Source of the DNA: a virus
Lineage: Duplodnaviria > Caudoviricetes
Length of the DNA stretch: 39,400 bases
Reading direction: 5' to 3' (one strand)
Virus record (IMG/VR): IMGVR_UViG_3300007764_000002
Location: 1 to 39,400 of that record
Numbering within the stretch: position 1 is the first letter of the stretch; each line of letters begins with the position of its first letter. Under the pieces are notes generated by a model. It was not told the DNA's origin and did no database searches. It saw nothing but the letters and a program-made list of their open reading frames with translations. Positions 13,707-38,177 of this stretch are shown in pieces. The position numbers and the translations under genes were made by a program.

Positions 13707-13716
13707 GGAGACGACT

Positions 13717-14640
13717 ATGACACTTCCGAACGATAAAAATGCACGTAAGGCCCTTCCAATGGCTCGGGGATTGCTGGATTACTTCCCTGACGCACTGGCA
13801 GAAGTTGCTCACGTGAGTCAAGTGGGAAACGATCAGCACAACCCCGGCGAGGAATTACACTGGGCCAAGGATAAGTCGCAAGATCACGCCGATGCTTTAA
13901 TACGGCACCTGACGGAGCGGGGGAAGGTAGACAGTGATGGTCTTCGACATAGCGGAAAGGTGGCGTGGCGAGCACTAGCAGCGTTGCAGATCGAGCTTGA
14001 CAAAGAAGCTAAGATGGAGATGCCAGTGGCTACTATCTCCCCGAAGCCAAAGCCCGACCGGATTTGGAGTGAACTCAAGCAAGATACGCTACGCACCCAC
14101 CGAAATACCCTGATAACTAGCGGGTGCACACCGGAGGTTGCTGCTCAGATTATCGATGGCATGACCTTTCCCGGACTCTATTCGCTAAAGGGGAGACAAC
14201 GCCAGTCAATAGTTTATATCGCGGGTCCAATGCGAGGGTATATTGACCATAACTTTACATCCTTCGATAACTGCCGGGATGACTGTCTGAACAAGGGGTA
14301 CATTGTGATAAGTCCGGCTGACATTGATCGAGCAGCCGGGGATGCAGAAGACGATAAGGACATATCACAGCCTCGTAACGCTGCGATTCAGAGACGCTAC
14401 GCTTATCGGGATTTTCACGCCATACATTCCTTGACAGCAGAACAGGGAGACGGTATCGTGATGTTGCCGGACTGGGAAACTTCTGTGGGTGCGACTGCTG
14501 AGTTATTTATGGCACGCTGGCTTCAACTTAATGTCTTCTATAAAGTTGCAGATCGCCCGCTTACCGAAAGGGATTTGCAGGGGGATCGCATCATTTCATC
14601 ACTTTCTTACTACCTAGGAGCAAGTAAAACATGGCAGTAA
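13717..14640 (+). CDS. Fusion of DUF5664 (dATP/dGTP diphosphohydrolase N-terminal-like) and DUF4406 (nucleoside deoxyribosyltransferase-like)
   Basis: FPDALAEVAHVS..G..QH...HW...DALIRH...H..KVAWRALA; then VYIAGPMRG...F...ISPAD...LPDWETSVGATAE; RBS AAGGAG before ATG 13717. Confidence 0.8.
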   Translation: MTLPNDKNARKALPMARGLLDYFPDALAEVAHVSQVGNDQHNPGEELHWAKDKSQDHADALIRHLTERGKVDSDGLRHSGKVAWRALAALQIELDKEAKMEMPVATISPKPKPDRIWSELKQDTLRTHRNTLITSGCTPEVAAQIIDGMTFPGLYSLKGRQRQSIVYIAGPMRGYIDHNFTSFDNCRDDCLNKGYIVISPADIDRAAGDAEDDKDISQPRNAAIQRRYAYRDFHAIHSLTAEQGDGIVMLPDWETSVGATAELFMARWLQLNVFYKVADRPLTERDLQGDRIISSLSYYLGASKTWQ

Positions 14641-16232
14641 ATAACAGAGAATTATACGAAGCAGTCCAACAGTTTGGGGGGATACGAGCAGCCTCACGAG
14701 AGCTTGGCATTCCCAAGTCTACCATCAGTGATCGACTGAAGAACTACAGCCCTGATCTTCCTGAGCATGCGGCGTTGCCCACAAGCGACATGTTTGCAGG
14801 GTCTCACGTCGAAGAAGAAGGGGTAGAGACTATTAACTACTGTAAGACGCAAACGGCTCCTGTGGCCCGTTACATCCTGACATCGGCTCAGAATAACTGC
14901 CAAGTACATGCTCAATTCTTGAAGAACCTTCAGGCCCTTGCGAAAAAAGTTGATGCTCAGATTCTCATAGGATTTACAATCTATGATAAGGCTGGGTATC
15001 GGGGCCTTGTTCGGAAAGGGGAGCATGTTCGGAATCGGGATATCTGGTGGGACAAGGCCGTTATGCCGTATGCTATGAACAAGTGTGCAAAGCTGGCGAA
15101 ACGGTTTTCTTTTTGCGGGGAACTTGACATTATCGCCACCGCTCAACAGCCGCTGAGTAGCTTGGAATCGTATTGCGGACGTTCATCAATTGCAGTTCCC
15201 CACAACAAATTTCAGTTTAAGTGTGTCGAGAGCCGTCACCACCAGATGCCGAAAGAGATGTACACAACCGGCAGTGTCACGAAGAAGAGATTTGTTCAGA
15301 GAAAAGCAGGACAGCTTGCCCAGTTCCATCATGTCCTTGGAGCGTTGCTGGTAGAAGTTACGGATGACGGTTACTTCTATGTGCACCATCTGAATGCCGA
15401 GAAGGACGGGTCATTTTACTGGCTGAACACCCGCGTTGAAAATGGGAAGACAAAAAAAGCCCAACCAATATCAGGATTAATTCTTGGCGACATTCACGCG
15501 GAGAAATTTAACTGGTATGACTTGCGTTACATAGGAAAGATTATACAGACACTTCGCCCGGCTGATATATTTGTGCACGACCTACTCGACTTTCGTAGTC
15601 GAAATCACCACAATATCCGCGATCCGTTTTTTCGAGTGTCTGAGAAGAGCTTTACTGTTCGGGATGATTTGCTGTCGGCGGGGACCTTTTTACATTCGCT
15701 TGCCAAAAAATCTCCAGACGCGAAAATTTGGGTGGTAGCATCGAACCATGATGCGGCCCTAGCTCGGTGGATCAAGGAAACTGATTGGAGAACAGACGCG
15801 ATTAATGCGTATACCTATCTATCCATTGCACGCCATGCGGTAAAACTAATCGACGACGGACTCATCCTAGACAGACTCCGCCTTCTCCGAATCGCGATAG
15901 AAGAATACTGTGACATCGATAAGTCGGTGACGTTTTTACATCAGGATGAAAGCATCGAAGTGGAAGGAATTGAGTGTGGAATACACGGACATATTGGCCC
16001 TAACGGAGCTAGAGGAAACCCACGAGCCTATAGTCGTCTTGGCTTCAAGACGTTCACGGCCCATACCCACACCCCCTCGATTAATGACGGTTGCTACACC
16101 GTCGGCGTATCGGGAAACCTTGACATGGGGTATAATAAGGGACCGTCAAAGTGGATGCACTGTCACGGAATAATATACCCGAACGGGAAACGTGCTTTCT
16201 TGTTCTACAAAAACGACAAGTGGAGAGCTTAA
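14631..16232 (+). CDS. T5 A1-like metallophosphoesterase/nuclease with N-terminal HTH
   Basis: ILTSAQNN, QRKAGQ, GDIHAEK, HDLLDFRSRNHHN, SNHD.AL.RW, GIECGIHGH.G.NG.RG, HTHT, G.LDMGYN.G recall T5 A1; GGIRAASRELGIPKSTISDRL HTH. Confidence 0.85.
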   Translation: MAVNNRELYEAVQQFGGIRAASRELGIPKSTISDRLKNYSPDLPEHAALPTSDMFAGSHVEEEGVETINYCKTQTAPVARYILTSAQNNCQVHAQFLKNLQALAKKVDAQILIGFTIYDKAGYRGLVRKGEHVRNRDIWWDKAVMPYAMNKCAKLAKRFSFCGELDIIATAQQPLSSLESYCGRSSIAVPHNKFQFKCVESRHHQMPKEMYTTGSVTKKRFVQRKAGQLAQFHHVLGALLVEVTDDGYFYVHHLNAEKDGSFYWLNTRVENGKTKKAQPISGLILGDIHAEKFNWYDLRYIGKIIQTLRPADIFVHDLLDFRSRNHHNIRDPFFRVSEKSFTVRDDLLSAGTFLHSLAKKSPDAKIWVVASNHDAALARWIKETDWRTDAINAYTYLSIARHAVKLIDDGLILDRLRLLRIAIEEYCDIDKSVTFLHQDESIEVEGIECGIHGHIGPNGARGNPRAYSRLGFKTFTAHTHTPSINDGCYTVGVSGNLDMGYNKGPSKWMHCHGIIYPNGKRAFLFYKNDKWRA

Positions 16233-18244: not shown

Positions 18245-21200
18245 TTACTCCTGTACAAATCCTACTTTCTTAGCGAGACGACTACCAAAGGTCGTCTCAT
18301 GTCCAGTTAAATCTAACTGCCTCTTCAGATCACCCCGAAGATTTTGAACAGTCAAGGGTTTTGTTCGGCCATCGCCCGGTCCTTGTTTGCGGCGGTCATT
18401 ATAAATCTTGAGCATCAGTTGAACATCATGGGTGTGACCGTTCCGTAGAGCTTTGGCTGCTTCAACACGTAGCTGCTTTAATTTTGCCCTATAATCTTTT
18501 TTGGCGAGTTCCTTTGTTATGTGGTATCCCCGCCCAAACGGTGCCCAGTAATACATAAGCTCCCCAACTACGGGCATATATCGAATGCTTCGTAGCCCGG
18601 CAGAATTAGTCGTTAAGTCTTGCCACGTCGCAGTTGCAATCCCAAATGGGGGAGTGATATAGTCCATAGCTGTCTGAACCGGGTCCTCGCTTGCCTTCCC
18701 AACCATATACCTGTTTAAACCCACTGTTCCAAGCATTGCCTCGACAGACCGGTCAGGAATATCAGACGCATTTACAGGTTTACCTCGCAGCCAGTCCTTG
18801 AGAATGTCAACCCCAAATCCTACTAGACCGAAGTATGCGATATACCGTGCTAAGTGAGCCAGCCCTTCTTGACGTTGGCCGGGAATAGCAATCTTACGAA
18901 CCATGTCCCGACGAACATGGTCTAGTTGCATCGCGGTAAAAGTCTTCAAAGCATATAAAATTCTACCGTTCGGCATGTCCAGATAGTTCCTCGGCATGCT
19001 ACTTAAAGTCAAGGGTTGAACCTTGGAGATATCAAGGAACAATAAATACTTAGCGTCCTCGGTTCGTTTTCCTTCTCTGATATCTTGCATGGTCTGACGA
19101 AATCGCTCTTGTCCTAACACTGGCTCGTAGTCTCGTTTTAGACGTCTGTAGATTTCTCCATTCGGTTTCGCTGCGGCATCAGAAAAAGCGTATTGAGCCG
19201 AGTTAATTCGAGACTCTTTTCCAAATCTGTCGAGAGCTTTAAAGCCTGTTTTTCTCATCACCCAATCGGTCGCCTTGGCAATTCTTCCCACGTCTCGAAA
19301 TTCCTCGCCGGTATCATGCAGGCCGATATCCTCCATCATATAGCGACGTTCAGCCCCTGAAATTTTAAGGGTAGTGGCAACGCCCTTAATCGTGGGCCTG
19401 ATTCCATGTTCTGCCGCTGTCATCCCAACGTCAGTTAGCTGGGTCAGACTACTGCGGAACTGGCCAAGTGTCATAAGGTAGACGAACTGTTTAAACGCTC
19501 TAGCCATTCTGCTCGGCGTGAGAATGTCTGCTGTAAATCTAGCAGTCAAAAGATCGTGCAGTTCAGCCTGCTGATCTTTATTGAGTCTCCCGGCATCAAT
19601 CTCTCGTTGAACAATCGATCCGATGGTCTCGTCCAGATTTTCAGGAGTGTGATTCCTGCCTAAAAATCTTGATCGTTCAGCCGCGTAGGTCGCCCCATCG
19701 ATATACCGGAAAGCTGCATCAAACGGATCAGCATAGTGACTTAGAGCATCCCGAGAGATTATATCAATAGATCGTGCACGAGCATTCGGGATACCCACAC
19801 TCCCCGGTTTTCGTGGTCCATAACCTTGAATGACACTATTTGCGATAGCTGCTTTCTGGTCCGCTGTGAGAGTGTGTCGGCCCTTCATCTTCCGAGCAAG
19901 GTTCCACGCATCTTCAAATTTCCCGGTGTCTTTCCCGAACTCCGCTTTAAAGGCTCTGTAATCCTTGATAAACCGAGGCCAATAATCTTCGACGTCACCG
20001 ATTGTAACCCCTGCGGCTCTCTGGTTGTCGAGAAGGTTTCGGAAGGTTGCAGAGAATGAATCAAGGTCATCCGCGAGCTTAGGATTAATATCACGTAGTA
20101 ACGACCGAGCAGAATCAAAGTCTTGATTCAACACGTGATACTTGAAATCATCCAGTTTACCGGCCTTCTTAAGAGCCGACTTGAGACGAAACGCAGGATC
20201 ACTGAGATCACGTTTTAGAGTTTCACGGGCACGATGGGTATCAAATTCCATACGGCTCAGGCGAGCAAATATCGGGGTGCTGATATCATGGATACGGCTG
20301 ATGATTGGAGTAACCCAATCTTCAATCGCTTGCGGTACTCGACGTTTATGAGCCGTACCTTCCATTGGCGGAGTTTTGAGTACCACTTCTCGGGCTGTCC
20401 GCAAGCGTTCGGCTTTTTGATCCCGAGCCGCCTGATACTCTTCCTGCCTTTGACGAAGTAATCTCATGGCTTCTCGTACACCCTCAACCGGCTTACCTGC
20501 TTCAGCGAGAGCAGCCTGAGCCTCGTTGCGAGTTGTCGCTTCACCTAACGAGGATTTTATCTCCAGTTTCCGGGCCTTCATCCCCGCCGAGGCTGTATCG
20601 AGAAGGTTACGCCATGATCGACGACTGGCAGGATCAACAGTAACGGGTTCGCCGACCACAAAGGCAGATACACCCGGTACTATAGACTCTTTCCCAAAGG
20701 CTTGTTCAATTCGATCTCTCACCGCAGCGGCTTCCTTCGCTCCAGTATCAGGGAGAAGCACGGCGAACTCGTCACCCCCGTAATGGAAAGCGTCGCCAAT
20801 ACGACCCTGTCCACCTCCCCGCAAAGTGGAGTCTAGGACCTGCTGAACTCGCTGTAGGTACTGATCGCCCGCTGATTCCCCCAGTTTATCATTGTACGCC
20901 TTGAGATTTGCTGCATCGAAAGCGATAAGAGAAATGGGTTTTCCAGATTTCTTACTTCGCTGACGAAGAACCCCAAATACCTTTTCAAAGGCGGTACGAT
21001 TCATGCCTCCAGTCAGGGCGTTACGCCGGGCTTCATCGACAAGCTGGCGAATTTTCGCTTCATCCTCGGGCTTAATATTCTTTCCACCCTTACGAAGGGA
21101 GCTTATCAACGCGTCAGCTTCCTCAGTGACAGCATCACTCGCCTGTCGTCCAGCCTCGGTCTTAGGCGTCGGCTCAGGACGAACAGGTTCAGTCGGCACC

Positions 21201-23152
21201 ATCTGGCCCTCAGACACAAACTCCGCTGTCTGGCCCGGCAGCAAGCGGTTAGTATCAGGACGAGGCGGCTGGTTGCGTGCTTCCTCAAGTGCTCGTCGCT
21301 GAGCCTCTGTAGTCGCTTCTCCTGACGGGTTGACCTCGATAACTCCTGTGCCCTCCCGGGGAGTTTCGAGCTTCTGACGAGCTTGCTCTAGTTCCCGCTG
21401 AGCGTCAGAAACTCGCTGTTCTGCTACCCCAACCTCATCAGGAAGTTGTCGAGACGTAGGAGCCGGTTCCCCTGTGATCTGGAGATCGTTTGCTTTCGCG
21501 TCTGTTTCAGGCACCCACATCCGCACCGTCTCTTCACCGCGTAATTCAGCAGCCTTCGCCCGGGTGTTTCCGTCGATGATTGAAAATCGACCAGTATTTT
21601 TATCAACCCCAGCGATTCCTCTTGGTGCGGTTTCTGAGGGCATGTCAGCATATGCCTTCTCAACGCCGGGTTGGTACTGGGGGTTAATGTCAACCTTATT
21701 AAGAGGAAGATCGACAGGCACGTAATTGTCGTTTGGATTGGCAAGAGTTTCTTTGGCTTGTGCCTCAAAAAAATCCTGCGTAGGTTTCTGTTCAGCGGGT
21801 TTGATTCTGACATCAGGGTCAGTTTCTGACGAAATCTTAGTCACGTCCTGTAAGGTTAGAGCTTGAGGGACGTTTCGTTCCGCTTCGATAGGATGCAGTT
21901 GTCCTATCATCTCCTGACGTGTACGTTCGGGAACATGGCCGCCTTGCTTTGCTCCCAACGCTCCGAGGGGGGCGAGTAAAATGCCGCTGGCAAAAGCCTC
22001 ACCCATCCCATCAGCGATAGCAACATGAGGATTGACTCCCTGCCGTATAGCATTAGAGATGCCAGTTATGGTACTCATAACCGCTCCCGTCTTAAGAGAA
22101 CCTCCTGTAAACTTTGCCGAAGATAGCAAGAGTTTTTTAATCGCTCCTTTATCTCCTGCTTCAATAAGGCTTTTTAATTTGGGGGCTTCTTTGAGAACCC
22201 TTCCCATTTTCCCGAAAATCCCTTCCAGCAGGACGGCTCCAGCACCCTGAACTAGGCCAACACCTGTAGCGGTGGTATACTCTGCGGTCTTTGAAATGTC
22301 GGCTCCTTGAGATCGTAGTGCTGCGACTTCTCTTCGAGTACCACCGAATCCTTCCGCTCCGAAGATCGTGGCCAGACCAACACCGCCTGTAGCGGCGAGA
22401 GCGGGAAGCTTAAAAGCTTCACCCAGTAACTGACCCCCTTTTCCAGAAACACTCTCGGTGTTCGGGTTCAGGAAGGCCGCGTATGACGACCTCATCTCGT
22501 TGGCTGTCTCGGGAGCAACAGTTCCAATCAGGTTAGCGGGAAGTTCACCGATGTCTTGCATAACATTTAAGCCAACATTATGCAAGCGTCCCAGCATAGT
22601 ATCCTCACGTTGCTGTTGCTCACGTTGCTTTTGCTCTTGGACAAAGTTTCGACTAGAAAGATCAGTACGACCAGCTTGATTTTTGTACCGGTCAAAGATT
22701 GCTTCCTGTTCGCCAGGAGTAACAGGTTTCCCTTCTCTCTTGTTCATCTGGATGTGAGCCACAGCCCACTCCGCCGCCGTTCCGGGCGTGACACCTGTAG
22801 CCATTAAGCGAGCTTGATCTGTGTCTGAAACGCCGCCTTGTTGTAAGACTCGTTGCATGTAGTCAGGTACGGCCTGCTTGGCTGCTTGCGGTCCTAAAAT
22901 TCCCCGTCGCTTCAACTCTTGAACAACTTGTGCCTGACGTTGAGTTAAGTTTCCTGCTTCAATACGCCTCTTTAATTCAGCAGCAATCTGCTCTCTACGC
23001 GACGTGGCATTAGGTACAGCCTGCGTAGATGCTTGTGGTCCTAAAACTCCCCGTCGCTTCAACTCTTGAACAGCTTGTGCCTGACGTTGAGTTAAGCTTC
23101 CTGCTTCAATTCGCCGGTTTAATTCCGCAATGATCTGATCTCTAGTCGGCAT
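18245..23152 (-). CDS. Large internal virion/ejection protein, polyvalent: N-terminal repeat, Gly/Ala-rich membrane region, ParB/Srx-like domain, GGDEF domain, helical C-terminal region
   Basis: 1635 aa, third and largest of three genes after the tail genes (ejection-protein position); IIDGNTRAKAA; ALTG..NR..F, FDAANLKAYND..G...GD, YGGDEFAVLLP. Confidence 0.85.
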   Translation of the reverse strand: MPTRDQIIAELNRRIEAGSLTQRQAQAVQELKRRGVLGPQASTQAVPNATSRREQIAAELKRRIEAGNLTQRQAQVVQELKRRGILGPQAAKQAVPDYMQRVLQQGGVSDTDQARLMATGVTPGTAAEWAVAHIQMNKREGKPVTPGEQEAIFDRYKNQAGRTDLSSRNFVQEQKQREQQQREDTMLGRLHNVGLNVMQDIGELPANLIGTVAPETANEMRSSYAAFLNPNTESVSGKGGQLLGEAFKLPALAATGGVGLATIFGAEGFGGTRREVAALRSQGADISKTAEYTTATGVGLVQGAGAVLLEGIFGKMGRVLKEAPKLKSLIEAGDKGAIKKLLLSSAKFTGGSLKTGAVMSTITGISNAIRQGVNPHVAIADGMGEAFASGILLAPLGALGAKQGGHVPERTRQEMIGQLHPIEAERNVPQALTLQDVTKISSETDPDVRIKPAEQKPTQDFFEAQAKETLANPNDNYVPVDLPLNKVDINPQYQPGVEKAYADMPSETAPRGIAGVDKNTGRFSIIDGNTRAKAAELRGEETVRMWVPETDAKANDLQITGEPAPTSRQLPDEVGVAEQRVSDAQRELEQARQKLETPREGTGVIEVNPSGEATTEAQRRALEEARNQPPRPDTNRLLPGQTAEFVSEGQMVPTEPVRPEPTPKTEAGRQASDAVTEEADALISSLRKGGKNIKPEDEAKIRQLVDEARRNALTGGMNRTAFEKVFGVLRQRSKKSGKPISLIAFDAANLKAYNDKLGESAGDQYLQRVQQVLDSTLRGGGQGRIGDAFHYGGDEFAVLLPDTGAKEAAAVRDRIEQAFGKESIVPGVSAFVVGEPVTVDPASRRSWRNLLDTASAGMKARKLEIKSSLGEATTRNEAQAALAEAGKPVEGVREAMRLLRQRQEEYQAARDQKAERLRTAREVVLKTPPMEGTAHKRRVPQAIEDWVTPIISRIHDISTPIFARLSRMEFDTHRARETLKRDLSDPAFRLKSALKKAGKLDDFKYHVLNQDFDSARSLLRDINPKLADDLDSFSATFRNLLDNQRAAGVTIGDVEDYWPRFIKDYRAFKAEFGKDTGKFEDAWNLARKMKGRHTLTADQKAAIANSVIQGYGPRKPGSVGIPNARARSIDIISRDALSHYADPFDAAFRYIDGATYAAERSRFLGRNHTPENLDETIGSIVQREIDAGRLNKDQQAELHDLLTARFTADILTPSRMARAFKQFVYLMTLGQFRSSLTQLTDVGMTAAEHGIRPTIKGVATTLKISGAERRYMMEDIGLHDTGEEFRDVGRIAKATDWVMRKTGFKALDRFGKESRINSAQYAFSDAAAKPNGEIYRRLKRDYEPVLGQERFRQTMQDIREGKRTEDAKYLLFLDISKVQPLTLSSMPRNYLDMPNGRILYALKTFTAMQLDHVRRDMVRKIAIPGQRQEGLAHLARYIAYFGLVGFGVDILKDWLRGKPVNASDIPDRSVEAMLGTVGLNRYMVGKASEDPVQTAMDYITPPFGIATATWQDLTTNSAGLRSIRYMPVVGELMYYWAPFGRGYHITKELAKKDYRAKLKQLRVEAAKALRNGHTHDVQLMLKIYNDRRKQGPGDGRTKPLTVQNLRGDLKRQLDLTGHETTFGSRLAKKVGFVQE
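22865..23143 (-). repeat. Tandem 147-nt (49-aa) duplication at the N-terminus of the ejection protein
   Basis: RDQIIAELNRRIEAGSLTQRQAQAVQELKRRGVLGPQA vs REQIAAELKRRIEAGNLTQRQAQVVQELKRRGILGPQA; DNA also highly similar. Confidence 0.9.
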
Positions 23153-23155
23153 CTA

Positions 23156-24145
23156 TTACCCTCCGAGTGCTGCACGTAAAAGGTCTGCGGTAGACATGCT
23201 GCTGACGTCTGTTTGTGAGGTAGTAGGCGGTGTGGCTTGGGAAGCTGTACCGCTAATAACCTGCTGATATTGGGCTTGCTTAGCCTTAATCTCCGCAAGG
23301 GTTTGCTGGTAGTCATTATATAGTTGAGCGGCGTCGGCGTTCCCACCAGTAGATACTGAACTATACGGTTGACCGGGTAAGAACACATCAGCAAGATTTC
23401 TCAGTCCTTCTGTAAAATTCCCACCAATCGGTCTAAACTCAGGACTGAACTGAGAAGCTGGCCCGTTCGGGTTAAATTTTTTATCCTGTACCTGTTTCGC
23501 TTGTGCCTCTGCCTTCCGTTGTAGGCTATTGATCTCGCTAGAAATTTGACGGGCGGTAAGAACAGTTTGATACTGGGGGGATAGTTGACCTGAAGACTCT
23601 TGACGTCGCTTCAAAGCTTTATCAGACGCTGTGCGTAGTTGAGCCATCGTAACATCAGGAGCAGAAGCAAGAATCTGTAATCCTTGAGCTTCTTCAGGGC
23701 TAAGGTCATTTGCTGCTACTACATTTTTAACATAGTCCACTTTTGACTGAGATGCGGGAGCTTCCTGCGGTTGGAGGATTTTACTAATCGTGGATCGATC
23801 TCCGTACTGACTTGCAAGAGTCAGACGAGCCTGATCCTCAGGGGTCAGCCCTAGAGTTTGGGCTGCCTCTTGTTGCTGTTGTTGCTGCATGGCAGGGGAG
23901 ACCGTGGACATTGGAGTAGATGAAGGACGCTGTACCGCATAACTACGCTGGCGGTCCATTGCAGCTTGCAGGGCTTGCTGATCGGCAGCTAACCGCTGTT
24001 GATCCTGCATAGCGTAATACTGACGAACATTGGCTATCGTCTGTTGATCGAGAGCCTGTTGCCGGGCAAATGCTTGACCTTGACCCACACCTTTAGCTGC
24101 CTCTAAAAGTTGAGCAGGGTTGTCATATCGGAGTGTGATTGCCAT
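23156..24145 (-). CDS. Middle internal virion/ejection protein
   Basis: Gln/Ala-rich helical 329 aa, position before the large ejection protein. Confidence 0.65.
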   Translation of the reverse strand: MAITLRYDNPAQLLEAAKGVGQGQAFARQQALDQQTIANVRQYYAMQDQQRLAADQQALQAAMDRQRSYAVQRPSSTPMSTVSPAMQQQQQQEAAQTLGLTPEDQARLTLASQYGDRSTISKILQPQEAPASQSKVDYVKNVVAANDLSPEEAQGLQILASAPDVTMAQLRTASDKALKRRQESSGQLSPQYQTVLTARQISSEINSLQRKAEAQAKQVQDKKFNPNGPASQFSPEFRPIGGNFTEGLRNLADVFLPGQPYSSVSTGGNADAAQLYNDYQQTLAEIKAKQAQYQQVISGTASQATPPTTSQTDVSSMSTADLLRAALGG

Positions 24146-24155
24146 ATCTTATTCC

Positions 24156-25052
24156 TTACGCAATTTTCCACCCGTACGGAATGCGTCCAGCTTCCATCGC
24201 TTGAACGCCGGTCATTCCAGCGGGTATTGTTACAGTTTTAGTTGTGCCGATTGGTACTCCAGCATGAACACTCGAAGCCACAATCTGCACAGAATTTCCG
24301 CCACTGGTAGCCTCAGAGTTCGTCCCAAACATTCCGGCGGCTTCAGGGGGAGTCGTGGAACTGGCCTGTGGAAGATTGTTCGGGAGGCCCGGATTAGTGT
24401 AGATGTTCCCGCCCATATTTGTAGGAGAAGAACCACCGGCTGGATTTGTGTATGTGCTTCCCCCGCCCGCTGTCGGGGCAGAACCAGCGGCTGCCTGAGC
24501 CGCAACTTGAGAGCTAAAGCCACTACCCGCAGGTAGGCCACGACCCACGGATGTCGTAGTCTTCTGACCGCTGGGAGCAGCCGCTAACTGTTGAATCAGG
24601 GACGCATAAGTAGACAGGTTAGGGCCGATGTCATTCCGACTCTGAATGGCGTTCGCTTTTAACTGCCCGATTCCCAACTCGGCACCTGCTCGATTCTGTA
24701 GTATCTGAGCCAATTGAGCCGCAACCTGCTCGTTGATTCCCTGCATTGCAAGGTTTTTATCAGAAGCAATACCTCGCCTCACTGAAGATCGGATAGTCGT
24801 ATTGCCAAGTCCCCGGCTTATGAGGTTCTGGTCGGCAGTTCCTAAATTTTTCAAGTAGTTCTGCTGGGTTTGGGTCTTAGCTGTCTGACCTATAGTGGAG
24901 GCATTCTTCATAGCTTCTCCATAGGTCGAGCCAACTTGTGTTCCGAGGTTGCCAATCATATCAAGCAATTGCGTATATCTCTGTTGATTCGCCGTGTTAG
25001 CCTGATCCTGAGCCTGTTGGTACTGTTTAATTAGATCATTTGCTGTAACCAC
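24156..25052 (-). CDS. Small internal virion/ejection (DNA transfer) protein
   Basis: Q/A/G/N-rich, L.SRGLG.TT pattern, low-complexity C-terminal half. Confidence 0.65.
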   Translation of the reverse strand: MVTANDLIKQYQQAQDQANTANQQRYTQLLDMIGNLGTQVGSTYGEAMKNASTIGQTAKTQTQQNYLKNLGTADQNLISRGLGNTTIRSSVRRGIASDKNLAMQGINEQVAAQLAQILQNRAGAELGIGQLKANAIQSRNDIGPNLSTYASLIQQLAAAPSGQKTTTSVGRGLPAGSGFSSQVAAQAAAGSAPTAGGGSTYTNPAGGSSPTNMGGNIYTNPGLPNNLPQASSTTPPEAAGMFGTNSEATSGGNSVQIVASSVHAGVPIGTTKTVTIPAGMTGVQAMEAGRIPYGWKIA

Positions 25053-31312: not shown

Positions 31313-32431
31313 TTAGGAACCGGGAATCGCTTTGTGAAGCACGAATCCAGCAGTTCGCCGGTTGATACACATGTTGTTGTGGGAGCCATCAAGGAAGACA
31401 GTAGCCGTGGTATGCTGACTACGATCAAACATCGGCTCGCCCTCTTCCATCCAATACCCATCCTGCACGAAGGGGATCAGCTTTGTCCAATCCACGCAAT
31501 AAATCGGGGCAGGCGACGCACTGTTGCCACCGCCATCAGTGACGGTAACGTCATCCAGCGGAGGAACGTACACAACCGGCATCCTGTTAAAGTATACCGT
31601 GCCATCTTCATTGTGCAGCATTTTGCCGGCAAGGTCTTTAGGACCGTTATTGTCGTCACGTTTGTCACCGAGGTCCTCTAACTCGGTGCACGTGGAGTCA
31701 TCAGCGTACAACTTGATGGGGTTGCCGACATTATCCATGCCGGGCTTATTCACGAACGGAGCAGGACGGAACCGCGTTCGACGGACTGCCTGACGAAGTT
31801 TACGAAGCAGGCTGTTGTCAACCTTCGTGTAAATGTCGGCATAGTTCCGCCACTTCGGTTCGGAGGAAGCATCGATGCCCGCACAGATCGTACCAGTTGT
31901 ACCTCCCTGATACCGGATCGTCTGAGCATTGAAGCCGCCCGTAGTGCTGCCGTTGTCGAGATAATTGACGTAGTACGGCACGCCATAGGGATACTTCTTG
32001 TCCGTTGCAGAAGTAGGCGTCAACCACCCACGTTCCTCAAGCAGATCGGCAAGGTCCCACATTGCTGTGGTCCGACGGGACTCAATCAGGTTGATGAAGC
32101 CCTTAGAACTGTTACGTTGACGCAAAAGCTCCAACACATCCCACGAATAATCCACACCAATCTGAGTCCACGGAACATCGATCTCGTGCTGGTTGCTGTC
32201 AACCGTAGGCTGATCGGTGTCATACAGACGACGGTAACGTGCCCGACCGTTATTGTCGAGAACTACGTTACGTTGAATGGAAGTACCGCCGTCGATCTGC
32301 CGACGATGCTTCTGGTAAATGTTACAAAACTCATAATTCTGATACGTCCACATGACCTCAAACTGCTTCTTCGGCAAGTCTTTTAAAGTCGTAGCAATCA
32401 GATCAGCAAGAGCACTATTATCAACACCCAT
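31313..32431 (-). CDS. Major capsid protein
   Basis: 372 aa, directly after an acidic scaffold, AAAGGAG RBS; LADLIATTL, GGTSI and C-terminal N..C.NRR..F pattern of podoviral HK97-fold capsids. Confidence 0.8.
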   Translation of the reverse strand: MGVDNSALADLIATTLKDLPKKQFEVMWTYQNYEFCNIYQKHRRQIDGGTSIQRNVVLDNNGRARYRRLYDTDQPTVDSNQHEIDVPWTQIGVDYSWDVLELLRQRNSSKGFINLIESRRTTAMWDLADLLEERGWLTPTSATDKKYPYGVPYYVNYLDNGSTTGGFNAQTIRYQGGTTGTICAGIDASSEPKWRNYADIYTKVDNSLLRKLRQAVRRTRFRPAPFVNKPGMDNVGNPIKLYADDSTCTELEDLGDKRDDNNGPKDLAGKMLHNEDGTVYFNRMPVVYVPPLDDVTVTDGGGNSASPAPIYCVDWTKLIPFVQDGYWMEEGEPMFDRSQHTTATVFLDGSHNNMCINRRTAGFVLHKAIPGS

Positions 32432-32452
32432 TAGGGTTTCTCCTTTCTTATG

Positions 32453-33571
32453 TTACCCGTTAAAAGCTCTTGCTAAGCCCTGAGCGACGCGGTTTTCCAG
32501 TTCTTTCCGACTGCGGGGGCGACCCGTTATATTGGGTTGTCCACCAGTACGTTTAGTCGGTCGAAGCGAAATTCCTTTCTCTCGTGGTTTAGCAGACTGC
32601 TTGATCTTTTCCCGGATAGCGTGTTCTGTAAAATCCCTCGACACAATATCGTGAGCATTCATCAGGGCATCCTGTAAAGGTACTTCCTGACGACGGAGAT
32701 TGCGAGCACCAGTTACGATATCGAAGGCTGTCTGCAACAAATTGTTACGAGCTTCGATCTGGTCGTTGTTCAAGCCATCAGCAGGATTGCCATACAATTC
32801 TTGGTAGCCCTTCAACTCATCGCTGCCAAAAAAGCTATCGACAAATCTGCTGACTTGCTCTGCTTGAGCACTTTCAATCTCCTTGTGACTGGCTTGAATC
32901 TGAGGAATCATTGCATTCACTGACTCGGCCATCTTGTTAAACGGCCCTACAATCTCGGCAATGATTTCATCATCCCCATATTTCTCTTGCAGTTTCTCAA
33001 CATCCAAGGTAGGAATTGCATTGACACTTCCTTCCGAAGTTGAGGGCTGAACCGGAGCCTGTCTTTCCTGTTCCTGCGACTGTTGACCATCACGAGCTTT
33101 TCGACCTTCTTCAGCCCATGCTGTCAATTCTTTATTACGGTTGTTGTGCATTCGTTCTGCAGTTTGGAGGAACTTCTCACCCAGCAAGTTAAGGTTCTCG
33201 GTGATATCCTGTTCTGTCCAACCGTAAGCCTCTAGTGATCTTCGATGAGCGTCAGGAAGGGTTAGAGCGTCAGGGTCGTCCCCATCGGCTGTAGCTTCCC
33301 CAGTTTCACTGTCTTGAACCTCATCTCCTTCACCATCTTCACCATCTTCACCATCTTCTGAGATATCCCCATCATTATCGGGGTCTTCTAGCTCATCGAT
33401 GGCAGCAAGATCATCCTCATCCACGTCTCGGTCGGAAAACACGACATCTAACTTCTTAGCAATGTCGTCTTCCAACGCTTTCCGATCAAAGTCTTCAACC
33501 TGATCTGCGTTAGTTTCCGGTACTACTTCTTCATCAGCATTTAGTTCCGTGTCTTCATTCGGGTCAGCCAT
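32453..33571 (-). CDS. Capsid scaffolding protein
   Basis: Very acidic N-terminus, helical middle, basic C-terminus; start moved to ATG 33571 (AAGGG RBS, downstream of P5). Confidence 0.75.
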   Translation of the reverse strand: MADPNEDTELNADEEVVPETNADQVEDFDRKALEDDIAKKLDVVFSDRDVDEDDLAAIDELEDPDNDGDISEDGEDGEDGEGDEVQDSETGEATADGDDPDALTLPDAHRRSLEAYGWTEQDITENLNLLGEKFLQTAERMHNNRNKELTAWAEEGRKARDGQQSQEQERQAPVQPSTSEGSVNAIPTLDVEKLQEKYGDDEIIAEIVGPFNKMAESVNAMIPQIQASHKEIESAQAEQVSRFVDSFFGSDELKGYQELYGNPADGLNNDQIEARNNLLQTAFDIVTGARNLRRQEVPLQDALMNAHDIVSRDFTEHAIREKIKQSAKPREKGISLRPTKRTGGQPNITGRPRSRKELENRVAQGLARAFNG

Positions 33572-33635
33572 AATTTCCCTTTCGTCCTGTTGTTTAAACG
33601 TCACAAGCCTCGCAGTTAAACTATGTCCAAGCTTA

Positions 33636-33663
33636 ATTATACCACATAGAATCAAAAAGTCAA
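33636..33663 (-). promoter_or_regulatory. sigma70-type promoter P5 for the scaffold/capsid operon
   Basis: On the - strand TTGACT-TTTTGATTCTATGTGG-TATAAT (16-bp spacer), same family as P1-P4. Confidence 0.8.
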
Positions 33664-33690
33664 GTCAAACTACCATAAATCTCGAAAAAT

Positions 33691-34032
33691 TTACGACTTT
33701 TCTTCAAACCCTACTGCTCGTAGGGCCTGTAACTTCTGTTGTCTGGTTCGAGCTACGGGGATGCCGTACATCTCGTCCGATGGGTCCATCGACACGTCCA
33801 CATCGGGGCATTGCCCTTTAAACGCTAGAATTTCCTCGTCATCTGTCAGGCCGATGCTGAACATCTCAATCGGTTTATGGTACTCTAGCTGAGTGTGCGG
33901 GGCAGTCGGCACCGTATGCAAGGACCCCCTAGCTCCGCACTTCTCGCAGTCCGTAAGAGCTTCATCAGTGATATGCTGGAACTCTTCCTGCACATTATCA
34001 CACTTTCGACAATGATATACGTAGAGTGGCAT
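33691..34032 (-). CDS. FmdB-like zinc-ribbon protein
   Basis: MPLYVYHCRKCD...CEKCG. Confidence 0.85.
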   Translation of the reverse strand: MPLYVYHCRKCDNVQEEFQHITDEALTDCEKCGARGSLHTVPTAPHTQLEYHKPIEMFSIGLTDDEEILAFKGQCPDVDVSMDPSDEMYGIPVARTRQQKLQALRAVGFEEKS

Positions 34033-34034
34033 AA

Positions 34035-34397
34035 TTATCCTTTCTCCTTTTTCCCAGCCGCAGCCATCTTCTGGAATCGTTTTTTCCCATACTTTTTCCT
34101 GCCGATTGCAGCAGCCACGGCTCCCGGATCACTGGGAGGGTTCTTCTCGCTTGCAAGTTTTTTCTTAAGGGCCTTAAACCGAGACCCACTGCCTACGGGA
34201 GCAACAGCATGCTTGTCGCCCGTATTGGATTTCTGTGCCTTAGAGACAGAGGCGGGTGTCCCGTGGTCAAGGTTTGGTTATCCCGCTTTCTTCGTTGCGT
34301 AATAAATCGTTGCAGCGTGCGTCTTAATCGTCGCCTCTGACGCATTTGGGTACTTCTTTCTCATCGCTCGTTTTATACCTTCGTATCGTGCTGGCAT
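34035..34397 (-). pseudogene. Basic 120-codon ORF interrupted by one in-frame TAA (34278-34280)
   Basis: AGGAGG RBS, MPARYEGIKR...TKKAG*PNLDHG...GSGSRFKALKKKL...PGAVAAAIGRKKYGKKRFQKMAAAGKK; fills the portal-FmdB gap exactly. Confidence 0.65.
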
Positions 34398-34398
34398 C

Positions 34399-36249
34399 TT
34401 ATCCTCCTGTAGCTTTGTTCATCCTCTGATCTTCATTTGCCCCAGTTTGTTGTTGCTGCCGTTCACGCTTGGCAGCACTGGGATTACCCATAACTTGACC
34501 GGGTTGTCCGTTTTGCATCATACTCATAGGAACGCCCTGCGAGCCTTGCGGTCCCGGTGCCCGCATCATCATCATTGCCATCTTCATCTGAAATTCTGGA
34601 TCGTCGAAAACCTCATCCATCCAATCAATACCACGATCTTTTGCCATCTTCAATATGAAGACTTTAACATTAAACGGTATGCCCATCAGCATCATGCTCT
34701 GAGCCGCTTGAACTGCGGCGGGTAGAATCTTAACAGCAAAATCCATTGCTTCTATGAATCGACTCTGGCCGTCTTTTCTCCCCATTGATTCAGGTTCAAT
34801 CTTAAAATTGTAGTCAAGAAATTCACCCTTGCGAGCTTCAGGAGTCAGGTACACTTGTCGTTTAACTATCTGCGGGGATTGTGTAACCATTGGACCCATC
34901 GGCGTCTGTTGATACTGAGCAGGGATAGATATACGCTGAATCAGGGGAAGATTGATAAATGGATCAGTGTGTAAGAACCATGCTCGCTTTCTTGCCTCCT
35001 TCGTCGCGGCATCATACACAGAATCCTTCATATCCTCAAGATACACAGAGGCATTTGAAGCAAGAATCCTCGCTTCAGTAGCTGAACTGGCATCGGTTCG
35101 TTGGCCCGCCAAAGCTTCCGGGTTTGCCGAGATCATATTAAACCAGTTATTCAATTGTTGAAGATGACTTTCATTAGACATCTGTTGCCCGCCTAGACTC
35201 AGCACTTTAGCACCGTCAACATCATCCACGGCTACCGTATCGCCATCTTCTGCATTCAGAATAGATTGAGCGTCGTCAACGGCGGCCCTGCGATACGTTA
35301 GAATGTCTTTTTGTCTTTCTGCCTGAGTAATAATTTTCTTCGCCATTCGGTTTGCTAACACATGGAGATCATTCCACACCCCAACCATTGGAACGGGTAG
35401 CGGATTACTCGACACCGGCGGAGTCAGTCCCAGTATGGTATACGGTCCAGTCTTCGGGCCATAATAATCATCGACTCGTAAATAATCGTCAAACATAACA
35501 TCCTTATCGCCGGGAACCGTGACGACAGCATTCGCATCAGGCACCCACAGTTCTACCACGCTTACCTGTTCTTGCAAATGGTCATCCGCACTGCTGGAAC
35601 GAATCCGATTACGAGACAGATCACGTACTTTTTTCTTCTGAGCCTGTTCGTCTACAGACGGAAGCCGCTCCACTAAGGCGTTATTGTACAAGCCACTTTC
35701 TAAAAGCTTGATGCGGGGAACTTCAATTCGATCTCCGATATACGCGGAGTCCTTAAACAACCACTCTTTGGAACCCGGATCAGCGACAAAGTTATCGAAA
35801 TCGACGGGCATCGTGTATATAGTACCGGGGTCAATCTGGTTGTAGTCGTCAATTGCATAAATGGTGTCGCTTGCTGCCAATCCCGTCTTCATAATCCCAA
35901 GAGTAAAAATCGCATCGACAATCACTTGACGATAAACATTCTTAATATCAATCTGTTTATCGTGGTGTTCAAGAGCCAACTCCAATAGCTCGGCATAATC
36001 ATCGTAGGCAATATAATTACTCTTGACACTGTGATGGGGAAAGCTCATCACAATGTTAGGGACAAGCACACGAATCGCATTAAAGATTAGATTAAGGGCT
36101 TCAGTACCAATCTCTCCCTGAGACTTGTCATAATATTGACCAACATAGTTCCGTATAAACATCATGCGAGCGTTACGGAAGTTGCTGAGTCTATCAAATC
36201 CACGCTGTACAGATAGTTGGAGTTTTCGTGGGCTAACTTCAGCAGGCAT
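34399..36249 (-). CDS. Portal protein
   Basis: About 616 aa directly after TerL; NLIFNAI, FVADP, SATEA motif, Q/M-rich tail; start moved to ATG 36249. Confidence 0.85.
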   Translation of the reverse strand: MPAEVSPRKLQLSVQRGFDRLSNFRNARMMFIRNYVGQYYDKSQGEIGTEALNLIFNAIRVLVPNIVMSFPHHSVKSNYIAYDDYAELLELALEHHDKQIDIKNVYRQVIVDAIFTLGIMKTGLAASDTIYAIDDYNQIDPGTIYTMPVDFDNFVADPGSKEWLFKDSAYIGDRIEVPRIKLLESGLYNNALVERLPSVDEQAQKKKVRDLSRNRIRSSSADDHLQEQVSVVELWVPDANAVVTVPGDKDVMFDDYLRVDDYYGPKTGPYTILGLTPPVSSNPLPVPMVGVWNDLHVLANRMAKKIITQAERQKDILTYRRAAVDDAQSILNAEDGDTVAVDDVDGAKVLSLGGQQMSNESHLQQLNNWFNMISANPEALAGQRTDASSATEARILASNASVYLEDMKDSVYDAATKEARKRAWFLHTDPFINLPLIQRISIPAQYQQTPMGPMVTQSPQIVKRQVYLTPEARKGEFLDYNFKIEPESMGRKDGQSRFIEAMDFAVKILPAAVQAAQSMMLMGIPFNVKVFILKMAKDRGIDWMDEVFDDPEFQMKMAMMMMRAPGPQGSQGVPMSMMQNGQPGQVMGNPSAAKRERQQQQTGANEDQRMNKATGG

Positions 36250-36260
36250 TATTATCCCTT

Positions 36261-38177
36261 TCATGCGTGTGTAAAATCGAAACGATCTTGTGACTGTCGT
36301 TGCTTCTGCTTCTTCTTCCATTGCTGCATTCGATACCCAACACTTCTCACAGGAGCTTTGACTTTTTCTTGCACGGGTCTTATACTTTCATTGTGAGGAA
36401 CAAGGCATAGCATATCAGCGATCACCCTATCGCCATGAGCCTTCCGTGTATTGGCTGATTCTTCTACCAGATCAGCGGGTCCGATCCCTCCGCCCGCGTA
36501 ACTTATGTATGTCAAGGCTTCATCCAGTGCAGCCTCATCGTGATTGATGAACCCGCCATGTGCATAAGCCCGGCGTAGTAACCCGAGAGCCGCAGCCTTC
36601 TTCTCCGGGGATGATCTCCAACCGTACCGCTTACCTTTTTTCTCTGCGATGGTTCCGGGCATTCGATCAAAGTAGATGTTCGGGTATTTGTAAACTTTAG
36701 TTACTTGTCTGCCGAAATCAAAACCCGGGTCGCCATTGTTTTCCCAAATGAGCAACGGACGAGAACGCCCGCCGACCCATAAGCACGCGGCACAGGCGAT
36801 TCTAGCCAGTTCATAGGGTGGCGTATTCGCATCGGCAAACGCGGCAACTTTCTCTCGCGTCTCATCGCACATAATATTTATTGTACTGTTAGACGCCCCC
36901 ATGCCCTTAGAAATATCTATGGCCACGGTATAGTGGTAGTGCTGATCCAGTCTGCCCCGAACAAGCTTCGTCCAGAACTTCCACGGACCGCGAGGGGAGC
37001 GTGCAACTTTTTTGAGGTCCCGCTTTGTAATGATATCAGGGATATCTGCGTCGGGCACCTTCTTTAAGAAATTTATGGCCATCGTAAACTTGGGAGGTCG
37101 TGCGAATAGCGTACGATGCTCTTCAATGATCGTCCCTTCAAAAAAAGTATCGCCCGATCCAACATGGTCCATGTCGATCTCTATCGCTACCTCTTTTGGA
37201 GATCGAGTATCCCACTCGTTGTCATACCACGGGGAACGAATCTTGAATCGGCCTAAATCATCCTCTTTAACATAGCGACCACGCCCTTTTTCCGGGTGCT
37301 CCCACCACGGAAGAATAAACACGGGAATCTGTCCCGAGAGCCTCCACTTAGAGTACGCAGTTCCCGGGCCGTTTGGTGTTGAGCACGGAAGTCTACAGGC
37401 GGTGACGTCACGGGTTGATCTCTTGATCGACTCACCCTCCGCCATTTTAGCCATCTCATCAAGGAATATTGAAGTACGCCGGTCAGAACTACCAGCAGAT
37501 GCGTTCGCTGATTCACCGTCGACCCTCGTTCTATTCTGAAGATTAACTAGGTGAAGCTTTTTTCGATTCATTGGAGGAAGCATCCACTCAGGGAGTCTGT
37601 TCAACATGAAGTCGATTTTACCGAATAAGGTGCCGGGGTCAGCGAGTGAACCAAACGGGTAATTTTTTGGCAGACCATCCAGCATGTCTACCGCGTCTTC
37701 TTTTCTTGAGATGATAAGGTGAGACTCAGACTCTTTAAATATGAAACGGTGGACAAAGACCGCCATGTGATTCCACGTCGCACCCATGTCACGGCTTTTA
37801 TCAGTCAATAAATCCTCACCCTTGTCGATAGCCCTTTCTATTCTAAGGACATGTCTCTCTCCGATTTCCCATGTAACAAATGGGACATCTGCAAACGTAG
37901 CTTGCTTGACTTTACCACTCTCTGCGTCGGGTTGAAAGACTCGTAGAGTGTAAAGAAACGCATTCATAAAAAACAACAAGGATTGTGACGCGGCAGTAAA
38001 GAGATCGACTTGGAGTTCCGTATCCTCTTCAGCATCCTTTAGTATAGCCGCCCGCCACTGTAGGTTCTCTACCGGCGTCTTCGGAACAATCAGCCCCGTT
38101 ACAGGGTCTTTCCAGAACTTACGTACTCGTGGAAAGTTGCTGGAAAGGGAAGGTTTTTTAGCAAACTCATTGGGCAC
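36261..38177 (-). CDS. terL: Terminase large subunit
   Basis: Walker A variant KSRDMGATW, Walker B IFLDE, STPNG coupling motif, nuclease IDISKG.G, WENN, HGDRVIA. Confidence 0.92.
   Translation of the reverse strand: MPNEFAKKPSLSSNFPRVRKFWKDPVTGLIVPKTPVENLQWRAAILKDAEEDTELQVDLFTAASQSLLFFMNAFLYTLRVFQPDAESGKVKQATFADVPFVTWEIGERHVLRIERAIDKGEDLLTDKSRDMGATWNHMAVFVHRFIFKESESHLIISRKEDAVDMLDGLPKNYPFGSLADPGTLFGKIDFMLNRLPEWMLPPMNRKKLHLVNLQNRTRVDGESANASAGSSDRRTSIFLDEMAKMAEGESIKRSTRDVTACRLPCSTPNGPGTAYSKWRLSGQIPVFILPWWEHPEKGRGRYVKEDDLGRFKIRSPWYDNEWDTRSPKEVAIEIDMDHVGSGDTFFEGTIIEEHRTLFARPPKFTMAINFLKKVPDADIPDIITKRDLKKVARSPRGPWKFWTKLVRGRLDQHYHYTVAIDISKGMGASNSTINIMCDETREKVAAFADANTPPYELARIACAACLWVGGRSRPLLIWENNGDPGFDFGRQVTKVYKYPNIYFDRMPGTIAEKKGKRYGWRSSPEKKAAALGLLRRAYAHGGFINHDEAALDEALTYISYAGGGIGPADLVEESANTRKAHGDRVIADMLCLVPHNESIRPVQEKVKAPVRSVGYRMQQWKKKQKQRQSQDRFDFTHA

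Follow-up and report, generated by a model that had tools for sequence, protein, structure and literature searches.

That a phage virion might carry a second-messenger enzyme into its host is not a new concept, having been predicted computationally in 2017. Iyer et al. (PMC5512222) described large polyvalent proteins of phages in which a GGDEF domain can stand together with unrelated domains in one protein encoded at a virion locus, predicted that such proteins are injected, and gave WP_004096050.1 of Acetonema longum as an example. They offered two guesses at function: interference with nucleotide-based responses of the host, or action against rival elements. Here, we studied a 1635-residue protein of this general kind, encoded in IMG/VR virus record IMGVR_UViG_3300007764_000002 (Duplodnaviria; Caudoviricetes). 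The window analyzed is the whole stretch of 39,400 nucleotides (positions 1 to 39,400; 39.4 kb, with completeness estimated at ~84%). An earlier reading of its letters had proposed that the GGDEF domain is a diguanylate cyclase, i.e., an enzyme producing cyclic di-GMP (c-di-GMP), carried within a virion ejection protein (hereafter, the original prediction). The reading that we favor, with a probability of roughly 50%, is that this is an injected, always-on cyclase whose main purpose is early action through the c-di-GMP effectors of the host. The original prediction knew of no characterized example, and we found no experimental test of a virion-delivered phage GGDEF domain in the literature, in which subscription papers were thinly covered; the 2017 paper, however, already contains both the arrangement and those two functional proposals, and its readers will find the concept unsurprising.

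The protein resembles the polyvalent proteins of Iyer et al. in joining at least two disparate domains (the GGDEF domain and a gp16-like body, with a ParB-like module as a lead), in its late virion locus, and in an architecture that varies among orthologues. Among the nearest GGDEF relatives, four carry LPD38, one of the phage-type markers of that paper, and distant relatives of the scaffold carry ART-PolyVal and PBECR5. It differs in being smaller, in lacking the HExxH motif and any Pfam LPD, ART, or helicase domain, and in a GGDEF domain from a clade with its own predicted stalk and apparently rewired contacts. It differs further in a scaffold that predicted structure ties to the fold of the T7 ejection protein gp16; neither gp16 nor internal virion proteins are mentioned in the main text of Iyer et al. 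(PMC5512222). To the published concept the present analysis thus adds the probable gp16-type scaffold, the free exchange of cassettes within it, the rewired phage clade, the predicted self-pairing stalk, and a limit that removes the draining of guanosine triphosphate (GTP) as an effect.

Phages that encode or stimulate c-di-GMP synthesis have been described before. Stand-alone GGDEF genes occur in YuA-like and Vojvodinavirus phages (PMC10333796, PMC8471281), and the YIP peptides of PB1-like phages raise c-di-GMP and reduce motility, for which superinfection exclusion and division arrest have been offered as reasons (PMC8085984). Further, PlzR, a protein induced by c-di-GMP, blocks pili and the phages that depend on them (PMC11461919). 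Unlike the protein studied here, the stand-alone GGDEF proteins and YIP are expressed after infection and, in the accounts cited, are not described as carried by the virion; YIP, moreover, acts on the host protein YfiN.

Every motif that had been quoted for the GGDEF domain is present in the 1635-residue sequence, and the Pfam profile PF00990 matches amino acids (aa) 712-820 far beyond chance (expectation value (E) 4.5e-19; 69 bits against a curated cut-off of 23.8); TIGR00254 scores 68 bits against a cut-off of 37.4. A sequence search of the PDB returned 44 matches at E ≤ 0.001, all of them GGDEF-domain proteins by name or by matched region. The AlphaFold model of aa 670-890 (predicted local distance difference test (pLDDT) 93.1) folds as a GGDEF domain, with WspR as the closest structure (Z 21.0, root-mean-square deviation (rmsd) 4.8, 172 residues aligned). 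The location first given for the domain was right; its extent needed adjusting, because the domain runs slightly past that span and should be taken together with the conserved hairpin that precedes it (Table 1).

The metal-binding aspartate, the lysine, the guanine-binding Asn/Asp pair, and the motif itself had been said to be kept, and all are found, as D746, K751, N754, D763, and G792-F796. The equivalents in the cyclase DgcR (PMC8041772) are D174 for D746, K179 for K751, N182 for N754, D191 for D763, E217/E218 for D794/E795, K289/R293 for K862/K866, and R147 for R719. Roles mapped in this way assign D746, D794, and E795 to the metal, K751 to a place over the alpha phosphate, K862 and K866 to the gamma phosphate, N754 and D763 to the reading of guanine, and R719 to the arginine that reaches across the dimer; T714 is the wide-turn threonine. 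In an alignment of 34 sequences at 23-64% identity, nine of the 221 query columns are invariant (T714, D746, N754, G792, G793, D794, E795, K862, and K866), and the position of D763 is Asp in 32 of the 34. Because the invariant columns are catalytic or binding residues, the alignment argues that selection acts on the active site. A decayed domain was rejected, since these columns are invariant and the deviations described below are fixed in one clade.

Asp at the position that sets the Hypr enzymes apart gives GTP specificity (PMC6456294), so the product to be expected is c-di-GMP and not cyclic GMP-AMP (cGAMP), in agreement with the original prediction. A Hypr GGDEF domain, i.e., a GacA-type cGAMP synthase with Ser or Thr at the Watson-Crick reading position, was rejected on account of D763. 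The GGDEF fusion recurs in independent contigs (L002, L004/L005/L014, L007, and L012) and is therefore not an assembly artefact. Judged from its sequence, we consider it quite probable that the domain is an active c-di-GMP synthase.

Four departures from the canonical domain had been listed, namely N711, E759, H790, and an RxxD at 784-787 that lies four residues before GG, and all four are real. What is new is that, on the alignments, they appear as fixed traits of a phage clade of 14 members. Relatives of the GGDEF domain were sought among 1.84 billion representatives. The 15 best matches (E ≤ 1e-30) are single-GGDEF proteins of 708-3694 aa, except for one with seven GGDEF stretches. Long single-GGDEF relatives number 36, of which 23 have the C-terminal scaffold of our protein, four have LPD38, and nine have neither marker. 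In a quick, midpoint-rooted tree for which 35 of 237 cellular-type domains were sampled, all 36 long relatives and four short stand-alone proteins are split by a branch with support of 100 from the 35 cellular-type domains and three short canonical ones, and recent capture of the domain from a host gene was rejected because all long relatives fall on one side of that branch. One protein encountered in this survey, P0122 (2538 aa), combines a DnaJ domain, a phage-type GGDEF domain, and a radical SAM domain.

The residues usual in cellular-type domains are Asp at the wide turn (232/237), Arg before the motif (234/237), and His at the position of E759 (203/237). Fourteen of the 36 long relatives have both N711 and H790, and every one of these is acidic at 759, is non-acidic at 855, and has Lys at 859; among the other 22, residue 855 is acidic in 20. 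The 14 proteins and one intermediate form a single branch (support 99), so the rewiring reads as one event and not 14 independent ones, and Fisher tests of co-variation were not counted as evidence, the 14 proteins being one clade. E759 corresponds to H187 of DgcR, and in all 14 members its modeled cross-dimer partner, D282, is replaced by a non-acidic residue and Y286 by Lys. As the positions equivalent to 759/855 and 755/859 are cross-dimer pairs in the model of the competent DgcR dimer (PMC8041772), the swaps look like a rewired dimer contact rather than decay. The idea that E759 is tied to 2-aminoadenine nucleotides, which came from a dATP/dGTP diphosphohydrolase-like gene in the window, was dropped because the DgcR model puts 759 in a dimer contact and because none of the scanned proteins was recognized as PurZ. 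The I-site of product-inhibited cyclases we take to be an RxxD five residues before GG, a spacing found in 81 of 213 cellular-like domains. The spacing of four reported originally is genuine, but the "feedback-free" behavior drawn from it is unproven, as 13 of the 14 clade members still have the RxxD, displaced by one residue.

Catalysis by GGDEF enzymes requires that two domains face each other. DgcR and PadC share a helix, preceding the wide turn, that can change its register: a-d is the inactive state and a-e the active one, e being position -3 from the turn and -3/-7/-10 the active pattern (PMC8041772). Here, the domain is preceded by a two-helix hairpin (aa 673-708), which was found in eight proteins, all of the E759 type. 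In a dimer model, two chains of aa 670-890 supplied with GTP and Mg gave a score of 0.48, the highest value among three controls being 0.00. The mark thereby passed had in calibration been attained by 20 of 30 solved homodimers and by 1 of 23 single chains. At least 80% of contacts are shared between runs, and the pLDDT of the partner is at least 87. Confident contacts in the hairpin involve L682, L686, I701, L704, V705, and A708, the last four of which stand at -10, -7, -6, and -3 from the wide turn. Across the E759-type proteins (n = 9), the residue is hydrophobic at -3 in nine, at -7 in eight, and at -10 in nine, and at the inactive-register positions -4 and -11 in none. These counts are not affected by one protein without upstream sequence or by two others, P0003 and P0053, whose wide turn was misplaced. 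With hydrophobic residues confined in this way, the stalk appears to be limited to the active register, as would befit a locked-on cyclase, and tethering to an oligomeric scaffold is predicted to help this state further. That the hairpin would dimerize the domain in the active coiled-coil register is a new prediction of this modeling. The domain thus shares with DgcR, PadC, and WspR its fold (Z 18.9-21.0), its catalytic and guanine-reading residues, and a wide-turn helix predicted to pair in the active register. It differs from them in having no sensor domain, in a stalk predicted to be unable to take the inactive register, in the substitutions D to N at the wide turn, H to E, R to H, D to S, and Y to K, and in the one-residue shift of RxxD.

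The carrier was examined by gene order and by fold. Its gene is the last and largest of three that follow the tail genes (298, 329, and 1635 aa), which is the podovirus order. The model of aa 900-1635 (pLDDT 84.2) has 103 matches at E ≤ 0.001 in BFVD, a collection of predicted viral structures. The structural protein of KPP25 (E 4e-9, TM 0.52) is among them. Many others are annotated as internal virion or core protein, for example in Aeromonas PS, RSB3, LKA1, VP2, and BB8, or as large polyvalent protein. Among solved structures, a wide search placed the PhiM1 ejectosome first (8vb2_A; Z 6.6, rmsd 5.4, 225 aligned). A second structural comparison returned T7 (9jyy_I; Z 6.5, rmsd 4.9, 224 aligned), 7eyb_I (Z 6.0), and E1004 (9vvp_L; Z 5.9), and its only rows with more than 200 aligned residues were ejection cores. 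Foldseek against the PDB ranked E1004 and T7 cores 1, 2, and 4, without significance, and no sequence similarity of the scaffold to any solved ejection protein was found. The gene order is plain and the predicted fold lends support, short of proof, to a gp16-like carrier. The slot originally assigned to the protein is thereby backed from two sides, and by analogy with T7 the carrier is very probably gp16-like and packaged.

In T7 gp16, membrane segments occupy residues 243-410 and residues 411-1118 make up a cytoplasmic body; four copies of the protein have been observed in the core, and six once it is ejected (PMC8954989). Delivery "in several copies", as first proposed, would by this analogy mean a few. 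In our protein, mildly hydrophobic segments lie at aa 246-401, and aa 948-1212 align structurally to T7 gp16 515-860, inside the cytoplasmic gp16-C (PMC8954989). On these two grounds the inserted modules (aa 467-870) would stand at the start of the cytoplasmic part, and the GGDEF domain is likely to be cytoplasmic after ejection. A second hydrophobic segment, near the C terminus, passes the threshold in some homologues only. The protein thus resembles the gp16-like proteins of T7, E1004, PhiM1, and phiKMV-like phages (PMC8954989) in being last and largest of three post-tail genes and, more tentatively, in its mild segments at about aa 245-400 and a helical C-terminal body of matching predicted fold. 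It differs in that no N-terminal transglycosylase was detected and in having ~460 residues of exchangeable modules between membrane segments and core. The link to a gp16-type scaffold and the likely cytoplasmic placement of the cassette are new here.

The survey of homologous ejection proteins for presence or swapping of the domain, suggested originally, shows GGDEF to be an exchangeable cassette. A search with aa 930-1560, in which the best 7992 candidates of 899-2862 aa were scored, yielded 43 proteins including the query. Of the 25 close homologues (at least 41% identity), 16 have GGDEF and nine lack it; all 18 distant relatives are without it. In the same region, close homologues carry the ParB-like module (12/25), an HDxxGH module (6/25, five of them without GGDEF), or HExxH (2/25), and among the 18 distant relatives ART-PolyVal exceeds its cut-off in two, PBECR5 in one, and sigma-70 domains in one. 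On a scaffold tree of the 25 close proteins, from which the 18 distant ones were left out, the GGDEF subtypes are not clades (approximately unbiased (AU) test, p = 0.0024, 0.018, and 2.7e-5), so modules appear to move between scaffolds; such exchange, as read from these sequences, is polyvalent-protein behavior.

Several modules of this region deserve description in their own right. The stretch at aa 467-562 is a lead to a DdrB-like ParB or ParB/sulfiredoxin domain: the ParB/Srx motif is DGxxR with a conserved Arg, and DG..R is kept in 12 of 12 aligned sequences. The Atlas lead is ParB_N (0.89, on 49% of members), and no Pfam or PDB sequence match was obtained for the module. The HDxxGH module, which has no Pfam match, occupies the GGDEF slot of five homologues and stands beside GGDEF in one (P0006, P0009, P0010, P0012, P0016, and P0025; loci L003 and L012). 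Two further GGDEF subtypes, the P0004 type and the P0015 type, are found in the same scaffold, and their products may differ. In the distant relative P0037, sigma-70 regions 2 and 4 lie inside the protein, making it a candidate virion-delivered sigma factor.

The favored course of events joins these results as follows. An enzyme whose active site is intact and conserved would ride on the gp16-like carrier, of which ~4-6 copies would be packaged and ejected if T7 is a guide. The insert, following the first membrane segment and preceding the gp16-C core, would enter the cytoplasm, where the hairpin (aa 682-708) is predicted to form a four-helix stalk that pairs two GGDEF domains in the register activating DgcR and PadC. 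The inactive-register positions are charged, which would make sensor input unnecessary. Upon ejection, within minutes of infection and before phage transcription, c-di-GMP would likely be made from host GTP, bringing the cell toward a low-motility, surface-attached state. Resting c-di-GMP is sub- to low micromolar. Set against this level, the calculated output makes signaling feasible: with the turnover number (kcat) of activated DgcR (0.33/s; PMC8041772), two to three dimers, and an assumed cell of 0.5-3 fL, c-di-GMP would rise by 0.02-0.2 uM per minute. The likeliest target is the host's own set of c-di-GMP effectors. The benefit is the weakest step; following the phage precedents above, it might lie in motility or pilus shut-off, leaving fewer competing phages, or in slowed division. 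Only tentatively would we go further and regard the cytoplasmic ring of the ejection machine as a plug-in platform for enzymes, on which a locked-on cyclase floods the cell before transcription and so disarms nucleotide immunity or excludes rivals.

Several observations weigh against an injected, always-on cyclase. The pass in the dimer calculation may partly reflect likeness to solved cyclase stalks; that job is unlike those on which the tool was calibrated, and the active-site faces lie outside the confident contacts. The PDB fold matches of the carrier are below the reliability marks of the tools (Foldseek E ≥ 0.6; Z < 8 for a helical protein), and the membrane segments are only mildly hydrophobic and went undetected in 7 of 25 homologues. 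Product inhibition may persist through the retained RxxD, and at a basal kcat of 0.01/s the output would be <0.01 uM/min; host phosphodiesterases could erase so low an output. P0004, P0007, P0011, and P0013 have Gly for the conserved Lys and are without the cross-dimer Arg, at which position P0015, P0018, P0019, and P0020 have Leu, so some versions may not need to make c-di-GMP. The nine close homologues without the domain indicate that GGDEF is dispensable.

Other readings accept an active enzyme and place its use elsewhere. Hundreds of copies would be present in the producer cell before packaging, and the useful effect could come then, with injected copies mattering little and the gain being a cell held on a surface or near other hosts, or superinfection excluded. 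An always-on enzyme would work wherever it is folded in the cytoplasm, late synthesis would yield far more of it than four to six copies, and phages do have stand-alone GGDEF genes, among them the YuA-like and Vojvodinavirus examples and the four short proteins among the phage-type domains of our tree. Such an effect would need no fusion, yet 27 of the 36 long relatives are fused to ejection-type scaffolds (23 with this C terminus, four with LPD38), and several GGDEF subtypes entered the same slot; we regard a late effect as doubtful.

Somewhat less credit is due to an injected enzyme directed at nucleotide-based immunity, its product (c-di-GMP, a linear intermediate, or another dinucleotide) competing at an immune receptor or keeping a nucleotide-guarded toxic effector locked. 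Iyer et al. made this proposal in general form (PMC5512222), Panoptes is an example of a guard system restrained by cyclic dinucleotides (PMC12657218), other conflict-type modules can take the place of GGDEF in the slot, and some relatives vary at the cross-dimer Arg, the residue by which GacA tunes its choice of product. The protein at hand, however, keeps the canonical guanine readers N754 and D763 and the arginine R719. The guard nucleotides named in the source are 2',3'-c-di-AMP and 3',2'-cGAMP, not 3',3'-c-di-GMP, and no host or defense system is linked to this phage, all of which makes the proposal improbable in our view.

The domain might instead serve the ejection machine chiefly as a sensor or switch that binds GTP or c-di-GMP, with little net synthesis, coupling DNA entry or ring assembly to the nucleotide state of the host. 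Three positions conserved in cellular domains are altered (the wide-turn D, the pre-motif R, and H) with RxxD retained, and the neighboring ParB-like module may bind a nucleoside triphosphate too. K751, E795, and R719, which are required for cross-dimer chemistry, are nevertheless kept together with a stalk predicted to take the active register. The extended low-complexity linkers (aa 563-672 and 871-929) speak against a tight mechanical link, and homologues readily lose the module, so we think a sensor decidedly unlikely.

Very unlikely is a failure of delivery, in which the protein is ejected without its domain or the domain ends up outside the cytoplasm. The topology is indeed an analogy with weak structural matches, and some polyvalent proteins, such as P1 DdrB, are processed before packaging; but our protein has no HExxH motif, the order of membrane segments, insert, and gp16-C core is as in T7, and a site that depends on GTP and Mg would hardly be under selection anywhere but in the cytoplasm. 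The drain on host GTP that the original prediction had also listed is ruled out by arithmetic, for although each turnover takes two GTP, two to three dimers at 0.33/s would consume, per minute, ≤0.04% of a pool taken to be 1 mM, and injected copies could do it only with a kcat about a thousandfold above that of activated DgcR.

If the reading of an injected, always-on cyclase is right, a phage would rewrite a central bacterial second messenger without transcription, by an enzyme hung on its DNA-delivery channel, and tying polyvalent proteins to a gp16 ejection scaffold would explain how their enzymes reach the cytoplasm. The prediction is cheaply testable, as the 221-residue fragment aa 670-890 is predicted to fold, to pair with itself, and to be active without a dimerizing tag, and a comparison is possible with natural variants that have or lack the cross-dimer Arg and Lys.

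Table 1. Features of the 39,400-nucleotide window, with positions numbered from its first letter
Feature	Position	Strand	Basis
1635-aa gp16-like ejection / polyvalent protein	18245..23152	-	Open reading frame, fold, gene order
Three mildly hydrophobic Gly/Ala-rich segments, aa 246-401, likely membrane-crossing	21950..22417	-	Hydropathy 1.36-1.42 (weak); analogy with T7 gp16 TMH I, 243-410
ParB/sulfiredoxin-like second exchangeable module (lead), aa 467-562	21467..21754	-	Motif
Helical hairpin running into the wide turn, aa 673-708; predicted active-register dimerization stalk	21029..21136	-	Models, register counts
GGDEF domain, aa 709-870, of the clade with N711, E759, H790, S855, and K859	20543..21028	-	Profile, structure, alignment
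GGDEF motif, G792-F796	20765..20779	-	Codons read
Conserved all-helical region, aa 930-1600, with gp16-C / internal-virion-protein-like fold	18353..20365	-	Model, fold matches
329-aa Q/A-rich protein, likely second ejection protein (gp15 slot)	23156..24145	-	Position, composition; L002 and L012 have homologues at this place
298-aa Q/G/A-rich protein, likely first ejection protein (gp14 slot)	24156..25052	-	Position; synteny with L002, L004, L006, and L012
Tail block: fibre-like 254 aa, nozzle-like 863 aa, 262 aa, adaptor-like 342 aa	25054..30307	-	Weak BclA_C and PHROG tail matches, synteny; roles inferred
Head block: major capsid protein, scaffold-like, zinc ribbon, portal, 638-aa terminase-like	31313..38177	-	Profile matches, position, motifs

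On the minus strand, the order runs from a terminase-like gene through portal, scaffold-like, and major capsid genes to the tail block, the three genes of 298, 329, and 1635 aa, and a small membrane protein. The portal matches SU10_portal (E 1.8e-5), and the major capsid protein matches capsid_maj_Podo with E 3.8e-19, yet below the cut-off of that profile; the terminase role is assigned from position and motifs. For the 329-aa and 298-aa proteins, Pfam, PHROG, and further profile searches gave no family match. The tail-to-ejection gene order is kept in L002, L004 (the same protein being found in L005 and L014), L006, and L012. In the comparison with viral contigs, a scan with one protein gave no relative and closer alignment gave seven loci; no cultured relative was found among 50,697 GenBank phage records. 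The terminase-like protein (36261-38177, minus strand) has 783 relatives, at least 120 of them at ≥61% identity and many on contigs of 46-48 kb, which points to a large uncultured phage group.

Elsewhere on the plus strand, three genes stand out. One (13687-14640), kept in relatives, fuses the N-terminal domain of a dATP/dGTP diphosphohydrolase to DUF4406, which is nucleoside deoxyribosyltransferase-like, and may serve in editing the nucleotide pool. A second (14631-16232) encodes a 533-aa protein of PHROG 1745, labeled DNA transfer protein, with weak metallo-phosphoesterase matches; it is present in L002 and was not found in L003, L006, L007, L008, or L014. The third (10030-10392) encodes a GroES-like co-chaperonin, and several relatives keep this gene. 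Among 36 window proteins scanned with Pfam, none has a PilZ, EAL, or HD-GYP domain, and Rfam searches of the window and three related loci gave no match to a c-di-GMP riboswitch, one tRNA in L006 being the only hit.

The only cellular genome with a relative of the scaffold is G001 (one locus), and that relative is without GGDEF. The genome has an Omp85 gene, DUF1559 matches, and eight GGDEF matches, which for this relative alone points to a diderm host with c-di-GMP signaling; its record is labeled Bacillota, yet has these Omp85 and DUF1559 matches. The locus (L009, 1196-14145) encodes a gp16-like homologue of 1526 aa that carries, in the variable slot, short repeats with weak matches to the DNA-binding Lsr2. 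No homologues of the head or tail genes of the window were found in the 21.6 kb around it. The element is small and integrated, with a TIR/DUF1883 gene, a Toprim-type protein, a helix-turn-helix gene, and a tyrosine integrase, and is possibly a phage satellite with its own ejection protein.

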